DNA of 64,000 nt from an uncultured Candidatus Saccharibacteria bacterium (GCA_964505635.1 CAZDIP010000001.1:116386-180385), one strand, 5' to 3'; positions 20,784 through 63,019 are shown, numbered from the stretch's first letter. The notes: a model not told the origin generated them from the sequence alone. Program-made: numbers and translations.

Positions 20784-20792
20784 ATCAGCAAC

Positions 20793-20820
20793 AAAAAAAC
20801 CTTCTTTAAAGGTTTTTTTG
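20793..20820. terminator. bidirectional rho-independent terminator (A-tract, AACCTT-CTTTA-AAGGTT, T-tract)
   Basis: Symmetric hairpin with an A-run on one side and a T-run on the other. Serves the + SIMPL gene and the minus-strand rnpB 3' end. Confidence 0.6.
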
Positions 20821-20822
20821 TT

Positions 20823-21202
20823 GCTCTAAGCAAACTCATAAGCCGAATTCTGTTTACCCAAAATAAATTTTAGGTTTAATAATCATCTATCTGCCGTCGG
20901 TATTACTACCGAGGTCAAGCAGCCTACCAAATTTGGCCTTGCACTCAAGTAAGGATTTAGCCGTTTCACCTCAAATATTTCTATAAGAGATCGCCCTGTC
21001 ATTTTTGACAGGGCGTTTTATTTCTTTCGAAATAAAACGTTTCTGTTCGCACCTCGCGTTTTACAACGGACGGGTGTTACCCGCTACTCTTTTGATAACT
21101 CTATAGAGGTCATCAATAAGTGTTCGGACTTTCCTCCCCATTCATTGTTTGCAAAATTTTGCAGCTTCCAATCAATGGGCGATTATTCGGTTTGCTTAGA
21201 GC
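20823..21202 (-). ncRNA. rnpB: RNase P RNA (bacterial type A-like)
   Basis: On the minus strand: 13-bp P1 helix between 21190..21202 and 20823..20835. P4 5' strand GAGGAAAGUCCGAAC (rc of 21121..21137) and P4 3' strand ACAGAAUUCGGCUUAU (rc of 20839..20854). GGUAGGCUGCUUGA (P15-like, rc of 20905..20918). GGUGCG and a GAAA-tetraloop hairpin. Length is about 380 nt. Confidence 0.85.
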
Positions 21203-29528: not shown

Positions 29529-30368
29529 ATGCACCCGGTTATTAGACATTTAAAATCTCGTAAAAACAAAGCAATGCCATTTTGCGATCGAAGAAAAATT
29601 GCGCTAGTTAATTTCGGCGGTTTTATGAGTGGTGTAAGAAATGCCGGTGCTATGGTTGCTTTATTGGAAATGGGCTACGGAAAATCGTTTGATTCTATTT
29701 ACACCATATCCAGCGGATTTTTTAATGCATTAAGTTTTTTATCAGGTGACGGACAAAAAAATATAAGCGTGTATTATGAGAATCTTATCTCAAAAAATTT
29801 TTTTAACCCCCTTAGGCTATACAAATTAATTGACTCTGATTATTTAGTGAATATTCTTAATAAAGCTAAAAAAGTTAACATTGAAAATATTTTAGAACAA
29901 AAAACCGAGTTATTTTTAAGAGTAAGAAACCTAGGCAAAAATCGCGATGAATATTTAGAAGTACATAAATTTAAAAAGCCTTCTTTTAAAAAACTTTTTA
30001 AACTCGCTGCATCGGCTCCATATTTATCGCCAGGTTATGTAAGATTAAGACTAAATAATTATAAGGATCCACAAATGACCGAACTTCAAACAATCGAGCA
30101 TGTCAACTATGTTTTAAATTCCAAGGCCACCGATATTTTGATATTATATAATGAAAAATCCCAATATCTTTACGCAAAAAAACATGTGCCGGCTATTAAT
30201 AGTGACAGAATCTTTAATATTTATCCGTTGCAAAGCAGTATATTAGATAGGGTGGAAACTAGCCCAAAAAAATTAATGGTCAGCGCCGCGAGCATGGGAC
30301 GCTTATGTAAAAAGGCTTTTGGGCTAAGAAGCTCAATAAAACTTTATAAAAGTCCGGATAAAAAATAA
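29529..30368 (+). CDS. hypothetical protein, possibly a degenerate patatin-like fold
   Basis: VNFGGFMSGVRNAG resembles the patatin oxyanion-hole motif. TISSG occupies the GxSxG position but lacks the first Gly. Confidence 0.3.
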   Translation: MHPVIRHLKSRKNKAMPFCDRRKIALVNFGGFMSGVRNAGAMVALLEMGYGKSFDSIYTISSGFFNALSFLSGDGQKNISVYYENLISKNFFNPLRLYKLIDSDYLVNILNKAKKVNIENILEQKTELFLRVRNLGKNRDEYLEVHKFKKPSFKKLFKLAASAPYLSPGYVRLRLNNYKDPQMTELQTIEHVNYVLNSKATDILILYNEKSQYLYAKKHVPAINSDRIFNIYPLQSSILDRVETSPKKLMVSAASMGRLCKKAFGLRSSIKLYKSPDKK

Positions 30369-30406: not shown

Positions 30407-31093
30407 ATGAATAAAGTAATTATAATTTCCGGAGGCGCCGAGGGTTTAGGCCAGGCTTTGGCCGAAAAACTAAGCAAAAATAACCGGGTGGTTATTTTAG
30501 CCCGCGACGAAAAAAAGGCCAAACAGGCTGCAGAGCAACTTAAATGTGATTATAAATTATGCGACGTGTCTGTTTACAGCCAGGTCGAAAAGGCGGTTTT
30601 GGAAATTATAAAAACTTACAAAAAAATAGATGTGGTTGTAAACAACGCAGGGCTTTGGATAGAAGGGGATTTGGAAAAAAATGACCCAAATCGTATTAAA
30701 GAAGTTATAAACTCTAATACCTTAGGCACCATTTTTTTAACCCGGGCTGTTTTGCCACACTTTAAAAAACGAAAAAGCGGGGCAATTATAAACGTAATTT
30801 CCCGTGCCGGGGTGAATTTAAAGCCAGAGCGCTCGGTTTACCAGGCTTCCAAATGGGCGATTACTGGTTTTACCAAATCTTTGGAAATTGAGCTCGCGCC
30901 CTTTAATATACGGGTGTGTGGAATCTACCCGGGCAAAATCAATACAAGCTTGTTTAAAAACGCTGGAGTAAAGAAAAATTTATCTGATTCTTTAAAAGCA
31001 GGGGATGTGGCAAACGCAGTGGAGTTTATGATAAATATTAAGGAAAGTGTAAGAATTCCGCATTTAGAAATAGTAAGTATGAAAAATTTTTAA
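30407..31093 (+). CDS. short-chain dehydrogenase/reductase (SDR)
   Basis: VIIISGGAEGLGQALA (TGxxxGxG-like), NNAG, YQASKWAITGF (YxxxK). Confidence 0.75.
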   Translation: MNKVIIISGGAEGLGQALAEKLSKNNRVVILARDEKKAKQAAEQLKCDYKLCDVSVYSQVEKAVLEIIKTYKKIDVVVNNAGLWIEGDLEKNDPNRIKEVINSNTLGTIFLTRAVLPHFKKRKSGAIINVISRAGVNLKPERSVYQASKWAITGFTKSLEIELAPFNIRVCGIYPGKINTSLFKNAGVKKNLSDSLKAGDVANAVEFMINIKESVRIPHLEIVSMKNF

Positions 31094-31094
31094 T

Positions 31095-31279
31095 AAATTT
31101 GAAGGGCGGGCACATACAGCGTGCCCGCCCAAAGGAGTTAGTCTTTAGAGGTTGCGCGTTCTAGCAACGCGCGTCTCACCTCCCAAGACAGCCCGCGGAT
31201 TTGTAGAAACCGTTGGGCCTCCTCCTTTGTCATGGGCCCGATGTCAATCGGGCCCTCAGCTGGTTTTTCATTTCGCATA
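31095..31279 (-). ncRNA. candidate structured RNA element (GC-rich multi-hairpin region); orientation uncertain
   Basis: About 55 percent GC island in AT-rich DNA. Three perfect hairpins: GGGCGGGCAC/GUGCCCGCCC at 31108..31134, GCGCGTT/AACGCGC at 31155..31173, GGGCCCGAT/ATCGGGCCC at 31234..31255. An enclosing CAAAGGAG / CTCCTTTG pairing spans 31131..31138 and 31222..31229. A minus-strand promoter lies at 31286..31314. Confidence 0.3.
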
Positions 31280-31285
31280 ACTCAT

Positions 31286-31314
31286 ATTTTAACATAAATT
31301 TAGTTATTTGTCAA
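31286..31314 (-). promoter_or_regulatory. consensus-like promoter TTGACA-N17-TAAAAT on the minus strand reading into the GC-rich element
   Basis: rc of 31309..31314 = TTGACA and rc of 31286..31291 = TAAAAT. It overlaps the murB start region. Confidence 0.35.
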
Positions 31315-32423
31315 TGGAAATTAAAGAAAAAATAAACTTAAAACCCTATACCACGTTTAAAATTGGGGGCTTTGCCGAGTACTTTTGCGAAGTTGAAGAC
31401 CAGTTTGATGCTTTAACGGCTTTTGAATTTGCCGCGGAAAAAAAACTTCAGGTATTTATTTTGGGCGGTGGCAGCAACTTGCTTATAAGCGATAAGGGTT
31501 TTGGCGGTTTGGTTGTAAGGGTTATAAATAAAGGCATTGAAATTATTTCAAAAAGCCAGGGTGAAAGCGAATCGGATACAATTTATTTAAAAGTTGCTTC
31601 GGGCGAGAATTGGGATAGCGTAGTTGAGTTCGCGGTTAAAAATAATTGGTGGGGCATGGAAAATTTGTCCCATATTCCCGGCTCTACCGGAGCCATTGCG
31701 GTGCAAAACGTCGGAGCCTACGGACAGGAGGCTAAAAATATTATTGATTCAGTCACGGTGTTTGACACAAAAACCCGGCAAATTTTAAATTTGGCCGCCA
31801 AAGATTGCGGTTTTGAATATAGGAAAAGCATGTTTAACAATTCCCAAAAAGGGCGCTATATAATTTTTTATATTACTTTTAAATTATCCAAGACACCTAA
31901 ACCGCTTTTAGAGTACAAGGATTTAAAAAAAAGTTTTTCCAATACCCAGGCCAAAACCATGCAGTTACTTTCTGAAATAAGACAGGCTGTAATATCTATC
32001 CGCGATAAAAAATTTCCTTTCCCAACACAGGCAAAAAACGGCAATGCCGGTTCATTTTTTAAAAACCTAATTTTAAGTGGTGAAGAGTATTTAGCTTTAA
32101 AAGCAAAGGTTGAAGTAACCAGTGGAAGCGAAGCTTCGCAGCAATTGGAGAATAAAAAATTTAACGAAGGTAATATTATAAAAATTCCAACAGCTTTTTT
32201 AATGGATATTTGCGATTTGAAAAATTTAGAAGAAGGCGGGGCAGCTATCAACCATAACCAACCTTTGGTAATTATCAATAAAAATGGAAAAGCGACAGCT
32301 GAAAATGTTTTAAATTTGGCAAAAAAAGTAAAGAATACCGTTTATAAAAGATTGGGTATAAATATCCACATAGAACCGGAATTACTGGGGTTTTCTCCAG
32401 AAGAATTGAATGGTATAATATGA
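31314..32423 (+). CDS. murB: UDP-N-acetylenolpyruvoylglucosamine reductase, C-terminally extended
   Basis: KPYTTFKIGGFAEYF ... ILGGGSNLLISD (FAD-binding). About 370 aa. The ATG at 31314 is preferred over the track TTG at 31308. Confidence 0.75.
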   Translation: MEIKEKINLKPYTTFKIGGFAEYFCEVEDQFDALTAFEFAAEKKLQVFILGGGSNLLISDKGFGGLVVRVINKGIEIISKSQGESESDTIYLKVASGENWDSVVEFAVKNNWWGMENLSHIPGSTGAIAVQNVGAYGQEAKNIIDSVTVFDTKTRQILNLAAKDCGFEYRKSMFNNSQKGRYIIFYITFKLSKTPKPLLEYKDLKKSFSNTQAKTMQLLSEIRQAVISIRDKKFPFPTQAKNGNAGSFFKNLILSGEEYLALKAKVEVTSGSEASQQLENKKFNEGNIIKIPTAFLMDICDLKNLEEGGAAINHNQPLVIINKNGKATAENVLNLAKKVKNTVYKRLGINIHIEPELLGFSPEELNGII

Positions 32424-32569: not shown

Positions 32570-32893
32570 GTGAACATAAATATAAAGGCCACCAATACTA
32601 CTTTGACACCGGCAATTAGGCAAACAATAGAAGACAAAATTCAAGTTTTAGATAAATTCGTCAAAGCTGAGCACAAAATTCGGGTTGAATTGGAGGTTTT
32701 AAAAAAACATCACAAGGGCCTGGTGCACAGAGCGGAAATTGATATTCAGCCGGGAGGCTACTACGCCGACAGTCTGGGTGTGGACTTTTATGCGGCTTTG
32801 GATTTGGTTTTGCCAAAAATCAGGGAACAACTGGCTAAAAAGAAAGACAAAGAGGTGAGTATGCGCAGGCGAGCCGCAAGGAAGAGTATTTGA
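32570..32893 (+). CDS. hpf: ribosome hibernation promoting factor (RaiA/HPF, S30AE family)
   Basis: NINIKATNTTLTPAIRQTIEDKI ... VHRAEIDI. GTG start. Confidence 0.75.
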   Translation: MNINIKATNTTLTPAIRQTIEDKIQVLDKFVKAEHKIRVELEVLKKHHKGLVHRAEIDIQPGGYYADSLGVDFYAALDLVLPKIREQLAKKKDKEVSMRRRAARKSI

Positions 32894-33006
32894 CAATAAA
32901 AAAAATTACTTTATACTTGTACTATGTTAAGTTTCGGATTAAATTTAAATAATTCCTGGCCTTGGTTTTGCGTCACTTCGCAAAGCCGTGGTTTTAAAGT
33001 ACTTAC

Positions 33007-33030: not shown

Positions 33031-33058
33031 CCACCTTCTTTGCGAAGGTGGTTTTTTT
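33031..33058 (+). terminator. rho-independent terminator CCACCTTC-TTTGC-GAAGGTGG + T7
   Basis: 8-bp stem followed by TTTTTTT, read directly. Confidence 0.65.
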
Positions 33059-48575: not shown

Positions 48576-50330
48576 ATGGATAACACCGAAAACAAAATTA
48601 CGGTTTTTGCTAAAACAAATTTCCGAAATAAGGAAGTCGCTTTTGGCATAAAAACGGACGATCGCCGCAGGCATATGTACCTGATTGGAAAAACCGGCAT
48701 GGGAAAAACAACCATGATGGAAAACATGGTTATTCAGGATATTCGCAATGGAAACGGGGTAGCCTTTTTAGATCCCCATGGGGATTCTATTCAAAGAATA
48801 CTAAATTCTATTCCTTCCAGCCGAGTTAATGATGTCATCCACTTTAATCCCGCTGATCTGGAATATCCAGTCGCTTTTAACATCTTAGAAGCGGTTGATG
48901 CAAAATATAAGCACTTAGTTGCTAGTGGATTAATGGGTGTGTTTACAAAAATTTGGGCGAATTTGTGGTCAGCAAGAATGGAATATATCTTAAATAATAC
49001 CATCCTAGCTCTTTTAGACAGTCCTGGTAACACGCTTTTAGGTATTACACGCATGTATGTGGATAAAAAATATCGGAAGCGAATTGTTGATAATATTAAA
49101 GACCCGATGGTTAAAGCCTTTTGGGTGGACGAATTTGCCAATTATAACGAAAAGTATAGAACCGAAGCAATTGCCCCGATCCAAAATAAAGTTGGACAAT
49201 TTTTGTCTTCCGGAATCATCAGAAATATTGTTGGCCAGCCTAAAAGTACCATAGATTTAAGGGAAATCATGGACAAAAGAAAAATATTGATTATGGATTT
49301 ATCCAAAGGAAAAGTAGGCGAAGATAATTCTGCTCTATTGGGTGCGATGATAGTAACAAAGCTGCAGTTGGCCGCTATGTCCAGAACCGACATACCCGAA
49401 CACGAAAGGAAAGATTTCTATCTTTATGTGGATGAGTTTCAAAATTTTGCCACCGAAAGCTTTGCGACAATTTTAAGCGAGGCCAGGAAGTATAGATTAA
49501 ACTTGATTGTCGGGCACCAATATATTGCTCAGCTTGAACAAGATAAAAATACTAAGGTTAGGGACGCGATTTTTGGCAACGTTGGATCAATAGTACTTTT
49601 TCGCATAGGAGCAGCTGATGCGGAATTTTTAGAAACTGAGTTTGATCCCATTTTTACGCCAAATGATATGGTTAACCTGCCTAAATACCAGATTATTTTA
49701 AAGCTAATGATTAACGGCGTAGCCAGCGAGCCTTTTTCTGCAATTACTTTACCCCCTAGTCCCGATTATTACACAGGTAATATGGAAAAGGTCATAAAAG
49801 TTTCAAGGGAACGATACTCGAATTCAGTGACAGAAGTTGAAGAAAAAATATCCCGGTGGATGGGGGCTGAATTCCACCAGGAAACCGCGGTGTTGGTTGG
49901 CGATGTTTTGGTATCTCAAAAAACGGGGCAAGATAATCAAACTAAAATTCCCGAGTTTGAAAAGGAAGCTTCCGATGCTGATGACAAAAATTCCAAAGAA
50001 CCAAAAAGAAACGAGGTATTAAAATCTGAGAAAAAACCCCAAAATCCCGTCCAGCACCTAATTCAGGATGAAAAAGATAAAATTAAAAAATCAAAGCATT
50101 CAGTTAGTAAAATAGGACGGGTGAAAAAAGAGAATCCAATTTGGAATACCGTAGCGCAAATTAATCATACAAAAATTAAAGAAATTTTTGAAAAAAAAAT
50201 TCCTGAAAATAATGCACAAACTTCAGTTGTTAACGACAATAAAAAAAATTCAGGCGCTTCGGAAATAAAATTAGGATCTAGCAACCAGCCAACAGTTTTA
50301 GAACCCGGTAAAACTCATCTTATTAACTAA
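48576..50330 (+). CDS. soluble TraG/VirD4/TraD-like (type IV coupling protein family) P-loop ATPase
   Basis: Walker A IGKTGMGKTT. Walker B YLYVDEFQNF followed by ARKYRLNLIVGHQ (TraG-D_C-like). No TM helices. Lys/Glu-rich C-terminal tail. Confidence 0.55.
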   Translation: MDNTENKITVFAKTNFRNKEVAFGIKTDDRRRHMYLIGKTGMGKTTMMENMVIQDIRNGNGVAFLDPHGDSIQRILNSIPSSRVNDVIHFNPADLEYPVAFNILEAVDAKYKHLVASGLMGVFTKIWANLWSARMEYILNNTILALLDSPGNTLLGITRMYVDKKYRKRIVDNIKDPMVKAFWVDEFANYNEKYRTEAIAPIQNKVGQFLSSGIIRNIVGQPKSTIDLREIMDKRKILIMDLSKGKVGEDNSALLGAMIVTKLQLAAMSRTDIPEHERKDFYLYVDEFQNFATESFATILSEARKYRLNLIVGHQYIAQLEQDKNTKVRDAIFGNVGSIVLFRIGAADAEFLETEFDPIFTPNDMVNLPKYQIILKLMINGVASEPFSAITLPPSPDYYTGNMEKVIKVSRERYSNSVTEVEEKISRWMGAEFHQETAVLVGDVLVSQKTGQDNQTKIPEFEKEASDADDKNSKEPKRNEVLKSEKKPQNPVQHLIQDEKDKIKKSKHSVSKIGRVKKENPIWNTVAQINHTKIKEIFEKKIPENNAQTSVVNDNKKNSGASEIKLGSSNQPTVLEPGKTHLIN

Positions 50331-50358
50331 AATTCCCCCGCCTAGGCGGGGGAATTTT
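50331..50358. terminator. perfect palindrome AATTCCCCCGCC-TAG-GCGGGGGAATT, bidirectional terminator
   Basis: Read directly between the convergent ATPase gene (+) and trxA (-). Confidence 0.7.
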
Positions 50359-50360
50359 AG

Positions 50361-50681
50361 TTAAAGATACTTGTCTATTTCTGTTTTAAGTATTTCCTTT
50401 GGAGCAGCTCCGACAATTTCCCCAACAACCTTTCCTGCTTTAAAAATTTTTAAAGTTGGGATACTCATTACCCCATATTGTGAAGCTAAGGCATTGTTTT
50501 CATCTACATTTACCTTACCTATTTTTAACTTTCCCTGGTAATCTTGAGACAATTCTTCAACAATCGGTCCAATAATTTTACATGGACCGCACCAAACTGC
50601 CCAAAAATCCACCAATACCGGCACTTGGGAGTCTAAAACTTCATTTTTAAAATTAGATTCGCTTAATTTAATTGTTGGCAT
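50361..50681 (-). CDS. trxA: thioredoxin
   Basis: VDFWAVWCGPCK active site. Confidence 0.85.
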   Translation of the reverse strand: MPTIKLSESNFKNEVLDSQVPVLVDFWAVWCGPCKIIGPIVEELSQDYQGKLKIGKVNVDENNALASQYGVMSIPTLKIFKAGKVVGEIVGAAPKEILKTEIDKYL

Positions 50682-62983: not shown

Positions 62984-63019
62984 TGTTTTTAAAGGCTCAC
63001 TACGTGTGAGCCTTTAAAA
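62984..63019. other. perfect 10-bp-stem hairpin AAAGGCTCAC-TACGT-GTGAGCCTTT flanked by T- and A-runs within a divergent intergenic region
   Basis: Read directly. Terminator-like, but located between divergently transcribed genes. Confidence 0.4.

Follow-up and report, generated by a model that had tools for sequence, protein, structure and literature searches.

The GC-rich, strongly folding stretch between an SDR gene and murB in this Candidatus Saccharibacteria DNA is probably a minus-strand gene for an orphan small protein; the gene would have a promoter and a terminator of its own and give a structured, probably leaderless mRNA. It was studied within the 64-kb stretch of DNA under analysis (the window). 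The proposed gene consists of a 46-codon reading frame with same-strand transcription signals placed exactly at its two ends and, in the one close relative found, this frame has changed as a protein-coding sequence does. The neighbouring genes and the parts of the proposed unit are these:

30407..31093, plus strand: SDR gene (adh_short, 1.4e-49), convergent with the small ORF
31092..31130, minus strand: terminator-like element, a 10-bp GC hairpin (31104-31130) followed by UUCAAAUUUAUU (31103-31092)
31278..31138, minus strand: 46-codon ATG ORF, MRNEKPAEGPIDIGPMTKEEAQRFLQIRGLSWEVRRALLERATSKD, with stop codon TAA at 31140-31138
31286..31314, minus strand: sigma-70-type promoter match with an extended -10, agreeing at 11 of 12 consensus positions
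31314..32423, plus strand: murB (FAD_binding_4, MurB_C), divergent from the small ORF
32570-32893: hpf (Ribosomal_S30AE), after murB

The position of hpf downstream of murB agrees with the first-pass annotation, which had placed it in the murB unit.

A folded GC-rich island between the SDR gene and murB

The island is about 185 nt long and about 60% GC within a 37.6% GC genome; over 31100-31249 the GC content is 0.59-0.61, compared with 0.376 for the window; the first-pass annotation had put the stretch at roughly 55% GC. Its folding is extreme. The 220 nt of the region reach a minimum energy of -89 to -90 kcal/mol on either strand, corresponding to z = -7.2 (plus strand) and -6.9 (minus strand) against dinucleotide shuffles, none of which (0 of 200) was as stable as the native sequence; the predicted minus-strand transcript alone gave z = -6.3. 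Perfect GC-containing hairpins of at least 8 bp number about eight in the 64 kb, and two of them lie in the island. No second copy of the element was found in the 64-kb window. Folding and hairpin scans gave the following elements:

31104-31113/31121-31130: hairpin 1, perfect, 10 bp, with arms GGGCGGGCAC and GTGCCCGCCC (folding and hairpin scan)
31131..31228: long-range 7-bp stem, AAAGGAG (31131-37) with CTCCTTT (31222-28) (folding)
31141..31189: composite inner hairpin with stems 31141-45/31185-89, 31148-52/31178-82 and 31153-60/31166-73 and loop 31161-65
31153-31160/31166-31173: hairpin of seven Watson-Crick pairs and one G.U pair (folding)
31191..31218: weaker inner hairpin, GCCC..GGGC, with a UUU/AAA tip (folding)
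31234-31242/31247-31255: hairpin 3, perfect, 9 bp, GGGCCCGAT-gtca-ATCGGGCCC (folding and hairpin scan)

Three perfect hairpins and an 8-bp long-range pairing had been described here. The 10- and 9-bp hairpins are indeed perfect, the third contains the G.U pair listed above, and the long-range stem is real at 7 bp. This stem encloses the two inner hairpins and so forms a three-way junction; on the mRNA it would pair codons 17-19 with the 7 nt right after the stop codon. Hairpin 3 falls in codons 8-15 of the ORF, where the encoded peptide is the palindromic GPIDIGP.

Searches for known RNAs gave no family for the island. At Rfam gathering thresholds the sole match in the whole window was a class A RNase P RNA (20823-21198, 115 bits), which lies on the minus strand amid mostly plus-strand genes. 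When the threshold was relaxed to E <= 10 over 30950-31450 (501 nt), only chance-level matches appeared, with raiA, 6S, SRP and riboswitches all unmatched; the best was an L20 leader at 18 bits, against a gathering score of 58.7, and only its terminator stem was matched. The raiA-like motif considered in the first-pass annotation thus found no counterpart in this search. ARAGORN detected no tRNA or tmRNA in the 64 kb.

Other structured elements were seen in the window. Other long perfect hairpins (19, 17 and 14 bp), in or near gene ends, and a canonical terminator downstream of hpf, made of an 8-bp stem and T7, occur at 50323-50364, 20787-20825, 62987-63019 and 33031-33051; together these may serve as a reference for terminators in this genome. 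An 8-nt direct repeat, ATAAATTT, occurs on either side of the island (31093-31100 and 31294-31301) and could be a chance occurrence in AT-rich DNA or an old insertion scar; its left copy is altered in the close relative described below.

Predicted transcription signals around the reading frame

The minus-strand promoter match reported earlier, TTGACA-17-TAAAAT, was recovered with its TG before the -10. It consists of a -35 box TTGACA (31314-31309), which overlaps the A of the murB ATG, a 17-nt spacer ending in TGT, and a -10 box TAAAAT (31291-31286). Matches at 11 or more of 12 positions number 6 in the window versus 3.2 in shuffles, and the same TGnTAnAAT style also precedes many window genes. 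One further promoter-like site, TTGACA-16-TATACT, agrees with the consensus at 11 of 12 positions on the plus strand at 32890-32917, the extreme end of hpf; the gene 3' of it (start ~33134) is among the few with a clear AGGAGG Shine-Dalgarno sequence.

At the far end of the unit, hairpin 1 is followed on the minus strand by the U-rich tail UUCAAAUUUAUU, or UUAAUUUUUU in the close relative. The tail (TTCAAATTTATT and TTAATTTTTT, respectively) fails a strict hairpin-plus-T-run scan requiring at least 5 T in 8, and we therefore call the element terminator-like and not canonical. Thus, of the terminator proposed in the first-pass annotation, the 10-bp hairpin and the U-rich minus-strand tail stand, while the strict scan was negative. 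Read on the plus strand, the same hairpin starts 10 nt past the SDR stop codon and has no U tract on that side.

The layout of the unit on the minus strand is compact: promoter, 8 nt, ATG, the 46-codon ORF, stop codon, 7 nt that make up the 3' arm of the long-range stem, and the hairpin with its U-rich tail. The first-pass annotation had listed only a 33-codon ORF; besides the 46-codon frame, two ORFs starting with TTG, of 42 and 40 codons, are found on the plus strand of the island. As the ATG lies only 8 nt past the -10 hexamer, the mRNA would be leaderless or carry a 1-nt leader, and its first 8 nt are unpaired in the minimum-energy fold. Such a start would be in character for a genome whose genes mostly have no Shine-Dalgarno sequence and whose -10 boxes lie close to the ATG: a Shine-Dalgarno-like motif of any kind precedes only 6 of 51 long ORFs of the window, and many window genes have TGnTATAAT 7-20 nt 5' of their ATG, which suggests that short-leader or leaderless, Shine-Dalgarno-independent translation may be widespread here.

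This anatomy also bears on two earlier suggestions. The promoter and hairpin of a roughly 185-nt minus-strand transcript are as the first-pass annotation had proposed for an sRNA, but the unit between them is filled by an ORF that evolves as protein-coding sequence. As for the proposal that the transcript is antisense to murB, the predicted RNA would begin some 36 nt 5' of the murB ATG and head away from the gene; it would therefore not be antisense to the murB coding region, whose ATG is touched only by the -35 box.

Comparison with the closest homologous locus

A single homologous locus was found. It sits on a Logan contig of 4.35 kb (L008), where the gene order is patatin-murC-SDR-ORF-murB, and all comparative inference therefore comes from one pairwise comparison. 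This contig is 94-95% identical to the window save for an 850-nt indel that removes a 279-aa ORF (29529-30368, plus strand) lying between murC and the SDR gene; that ORF has a sub-threshold patatin match in the window. Its absence from an otherwise so similar locus implies that the murC-SDR spot changed recently. The protein encoded at the small-ORF position on the contig (P0121, 45 aa, 87% identical) is the orthologue of the 46-aa product. With two sequences only, every evolutionary test of the ORF rests on 13 substitutions.

As a reference rate we used the pooled pS of 0.18 from four flanking genes. Across the intergenic 31094-31313 (220 nt) there are 15 substitutions versus 39.8 expected at this synonymous rate (P = 1e-6), a deficit which indicates that the region is under constraint. 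Both ends of the proposed transcription unit are unchanged: the 31 nt of the promoter (31284-31314) carry no substitution versus 5.6 expected (P = 0.002), and the 3'UTR with hairpin 1 (31102-31137) has 0 in 36 nt versus 6.5 expected (P = 8e-4). The first nine codons (31252-31278) have evolved at approximately the neutral rate, with 6 changes in 27 nt plus the sole indel of the ORF, a 3-nt in-frame one at 31261-31263.

The remainder of the frame behaves differently. In the core P10-D46 (37 codons, 31141-31251), whose boundary was chosen after the data were seen, all 7 substitutions are synonymous (P = 5e-5); for the last 31 codons a simulation of the synonymous-only pattern gave P = 8e-4, and with changes restricted to positions tolerated by the fold of either strand the core pattern still gave P ~1e-4. 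Over the whole ORF the Nei-Gojobori method yields pS = 0.26, pN = 0.048 and pN/pS = 0.19 (P = 0.003), while the flanking patatin, murC, SDR and murB genes have pN/pS of 0.06-0.18 and pS of 0.13-0.23. An out-of-frame upstream ATG is lost on the contig and the ATG of the ORF is retained. In the other five frames there are stops, or else most changes are non-synonymous; the 42-aa TTG ORF on the plus strand was rejected with 0 synonymous and 7 non-synonymous changes. Taken at the level of these substitutions, the pattern indicates purifying selection on the amino-acid sequence of the ORF.

The evidence on the RNA fold is weaker. The long-range stem is invariant, and the composite hairpin has only two changes, both in its loop (31164 and 31165) and both synonymous in Leu codons. 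Four substitutions fall in the weaker inner hairpin, all of them synonymous in the ORF, and on the contig the tip of this hairpin refolds into a 5-bp stem. In hairpin 3 the two outer pairs become U.G and G.U on the plus strand and mismatches on the minus strand. The covariation check called for earlier could be made against this one homologue only, and over these two sequences it counted no compensated pair on the minus strand and one on the plus strand (G-C to U.G, in hairpin 3). We scored fold preservation by minimum free energies and not by threaded energies, the latter comparison having been dropped because ViennaRNA scores mismatched pairs leniently. The fold energy on the contig is not clearly better kept than that of random mutants (p = 0.06 for the plus strand, 0.20 for the minus strand) or of random synonymous mutants (p = 0.04 and 0.09).

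Composition and predicted product of the ORF

Several properties of the ORF count against reading it as a gene, namely its codon usage, its orphan status, its strand and the GC hairpins within its frame. Its GC3 is 0.57 versus 0.36 for host genes, and its CAI-like index is 0.58, compared with a mean of 0.74 +/- 0.03 and a minimum of 0.61 among 45 long ORFs. It runs opposite to 49 of the 51 long ORFs (at least 150 aa), which are on the plus strand. Moreover, a stop-free frame of 46 codons is not improbable by itself in sequence of 55-60% GC. Compared with synonymous recodings at the same GC, the native mRNA also folds more stably (z = -3.1, p = 0.002). This extra stability points to RNA-level selection or to an RNA origin of the frame: either selection also acts on the folded RNA, be it for the stability or translational control of the mRNA or for a second function at the RNA level, or the frame originated in a sequence that was already structured.

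An AF2 model of the peptide (mean pLDDT 72.8, about 85 in the helices) places helices at residues 18-27 and 32-43, joined by RGLS; the N-terminal tail (residues 1-9) is poorly constrained and is followed by PIDIGP. The peptide is thus predicted to form a helix-turn-helix hairpin. A role as a small adaptor that binds nucleic acid or protein is no more than a guess. It had no match in Pfam, NCBIfam, PHROGs, PADLOC or a PDB sequence search, and Foldseek of the model against the PDB returned no significant fold match.

Both the NCBI source contig and the Logan contig have the ORF as a called protein, so that it is already in public annotation as an unnamed predicted protein. A word search of 5.8 billion clusters returned only the contig protein as a relative, as did an exhaustive HMMER search of 1.84 billion representatives, in which the other matches were repeat proteins over short stretches. 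One protein from the exhaustive search (P0124, 318 aa) carries four HTH_23-like repeats with the motif xEEAxRFxxLRKxGxS, resembling residues 17-31 of the small ORF; this resemblance is a weak sum over four short stretches and is too weak for homology. A JGI metagenome scan with back-translated peptides found none, and a second JGI scan likewise yielded no further copy; a third degenerate DNA pattern had one match, on a GC-rich contig with a stop-interrupted frame, which we attribute to chance. Viral contigs contained no copy, the phage collection gave no match, and the plasmid collection gave one 28-nt match to a Streptomyces plasmid, likewise taken as chance. Element and peptide are therefore known from only two closely related candidate-phyla-radiation genomes, and for six neighbouring proteins the 90% clusters include no assembly other than these two.

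The murC-murB spacer in related genomes

We compared the locus with seven related loci (L001-L007) whose MurB is 62-73% identical. MurB relatives labelled Candidatus Saccharibacteria or Doudnabacteria have the common order patatin-murC-X-murB-hpf, in which the X slot holds a minus-strand TPR gene in L001, L005 and L006, a 61-aa predicted membrane ORF in L004 (MurB 73% identical), a 147-aa ORF in L007 and other ORFs in L002 and L003. In all seven the murC-murB spacer lacks an SDR gene and a GC-rich island and shows no similarity to the element. An origin from these slot genes was considered and set aside, as BLASTP against the TPR gene and the 147-aa ORF detected no similarity. Homologues of the SDR protein (52-59% identity) lie in unrelated contexts with short downstream spacers, and no such element was found 3' of these distant homologues. 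Its absence from both sets of relatives means that the element is no conserved leader of murB and has no fixed link with the SDR family.

Weighing of the readings

Under the small-protein gene reading, the extended -10 promoter (31314..31286) would start transcription at the ATG (31278) or 1 nt before it, giving a leaderless or near-leaderless mRNA of about 175-185 nt; such an mRNA would suit the genome, because nearly all of its genes are without Shine-Dalgarno sequences. It would encode the 46-residue protein with its predicted hairpin of helix 18-27, RGLS turn and helix 32-43. Transcription would end at the 10-bp GC hairpin and U-rich tail directly past the stop codon, and the folding of the mRNA (three hairpins and a three-way junction) may stabilise the transcript or limit its translation. 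An additional RNA-level role of the mRNA is possible, since it folds more stably than its synonymous recodings; hairpin 3 may also terminate plus-strand transcription between SDR and murB.

The main rival keeps the same promoter and terminator and makes the product a non-coding minus-strand sRNA of about 185 nt, in which the ORF is incidental and function lies in the three-way-junction fold or in pairing with a target or with plus-strand read-through transcripts. We consider it a minority possibility, to be taken seriously. The extreme folding of the predicted transcript (z = -6.3) and its stability relative to synonymous recodings both speak for this reading, and five of the seven core substitutions fall at positions that the minus-strand fold tolerates; terminator, long-range stem and promoter are all invariant, composition and codon usage are unlike those of the genome's genes, and the peptide is an orphan. 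However, an all-synonymous pattern is unexpected for a non-coding RNA even when changes are confined to structure-tolerated positions (P ~1e-4), and the pN/pS equals that of real neighbouring genes. The fold itself argues in the same direction: there are no compensatory pairs on the minus strand, the two outer pairs of hairpin 3 are broken on the contig, and the contig fold is not significantly better kept than in random (p = 0.20) or synonymous (p = 0.09) mutants. The single-stranded 5' tail, usually the seed of an sRNA, is the least conserved part, and Rfam offers no match. An intermediate reading, which we judge unlikely, is a dual-function RNA, that is, a GC-rich three-way-junction sRNA that is acquiring or has acquired a translated 46-codon frame and also acts at the RNA level. 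A gene would then be arising, or have arisen, de novo out of a structured RNA or a terminator region; the transcript, which converges on SDR and lies back to back with the murB promoter, could for example be an antisense or transcriptional-interference insulator against read-through into the essential murB-hpf unit.

Two further readings were weighed. A plus-strand element, whether a 3'UTR or terminator cluster of SDR or a leader or riboswitch of murB-hpf (raiA-like ones included), would accord with a genome in which nearly all genes are on that strand, with hairpin 1 starting 10 nt past the SDR stop codon, and with a T run after hairpin 3 (TCAGCTGGTTTTT in the window, TCAGTTTTTT on the contig). 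Only on this strand is the pairing of hairpin 3 kept, its outer pairs going from G-C to U.G and from G-C to G.U, and the contig fold is marginally better than that of random mutants (p = 0.06; p = 0.04 for synonymous ones). Yet only one pair is compensated, a single event between two sequences, the U-rich tail of hairpin 1 is on the minus side only, and the synonymous-only substitutions of the minus-strand frame are left unexplained. The leader or riboswitch version, which the first-pass annotation had offered as its alternative, further meets the absence of any Rfam family, raiA included, at E <= 10, and the finding that nothing similar lies 5' of murB in the seven related loci, where the spacer holds unrelated genes; the SDR version meets the absence of the element after distant SDR homologues. 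We regard a plus-strand element as distinctly improbable. Still less probable, in our view very much so, is a remnant, now without function, of a GC-rich gene or mobile element that decayed or was acquired horizontally. The island does lie in a murC-murB spacer that has different inserts in different relatives, the SDR gene and, in the window, the extra 279-aa ORF look inserted there, and the direct repeat ATAAATTT flanks the island; but an inert sequence would hardly show 15 substitutions where 39.8 are expected in the 220-nt intergenic region (P = 1e-6), or an ORF under apparent purifying selection. No donor was found in the phage, plasmid, viral or metagenome collections, no terminal inverted repeats were seen, and the contig does not retain the left-hand copy of the repeat ATAAATTT.

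Relation to known systems and implications

Dual-function sRNAs such as SR1/SR1P of Bacillus (39 aa), SgrS/SgrT of E. coli (43 aa) and RNAIII/delta-haemolysin of Staphylococcus resemble the proposed gene in being structured transcripts of about 200 nt with their own promoter, an intrinsic-type terminator and a selected ORF of 40-50 codons. The present unit differs from them in having no sequence or Rfam relationship to them, in an ORF that fills almost the entire transcript from its 5' end, and in its occurrence in two genomes only; the one indirect hint of an RNA-level regulatory activity here is the stability of the mRNA relative to synonymous recodings (z = -3.1). With lineage-specific small ORFs on leaderless or short-leader mRNAs it shares the -10 box 8 nt before the ATG, the absence of a Shine-Dalgarno sequence, a pN/pS below 1 and orphan status, whereas its GC content and codon usage far from those of the host, its perfect GC hairpins in frame and its extra-stable mRNA set it apart.

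The peptide can be likened to SAP/HeH helix-extended-loop-helix and HTH_23-like units by its two predicted helices and RGLS turn, and its motif xEEAxRFxx[LI]RxxGxS resembles the HTH_23 repeats of the 318-aa protein. There is no Pfam match to any such family and no significant structural match, so that this is resemblance only, and the likeness to SAP-like motifs is only a lead.

The island itself has the appearance of candidates from the GC-IGR approach of the Breaker laboratory, which reportedly uses GC-rich intergenic regions of AT-rich genomes to discover structured ncRNAs: it lies between genes, folds strongly and reaches about 60% GC where the genome as a whole has 37.6%. Such candidates are said to be accepted on covariation across many homologues. 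In contrast, the present one has a single close homologue, its minus strand shows no covariation, its plus strand has one compensated pair, and its substitutions fit a reading frame.

The reach of the finding is limited to two closely related genomes and to an ORF already annotated, without a name, as a predicted protein. If the small-protein gene reading is correct, it would be a caution for ncRNA screens based on GC-rich folding islands in AT-rich genomes, as this signature can mark a tiny protein gene instead of a riboswitch or an sRNA. The small proteome of the Patescibacteria, which is poorly known, would also gain one more orphan protein, apparently made from a leaderless mRNA lacking a Shine-Dalgarno sequence; its gene occupies a variable position within the murC-murB cell-wall cluster.
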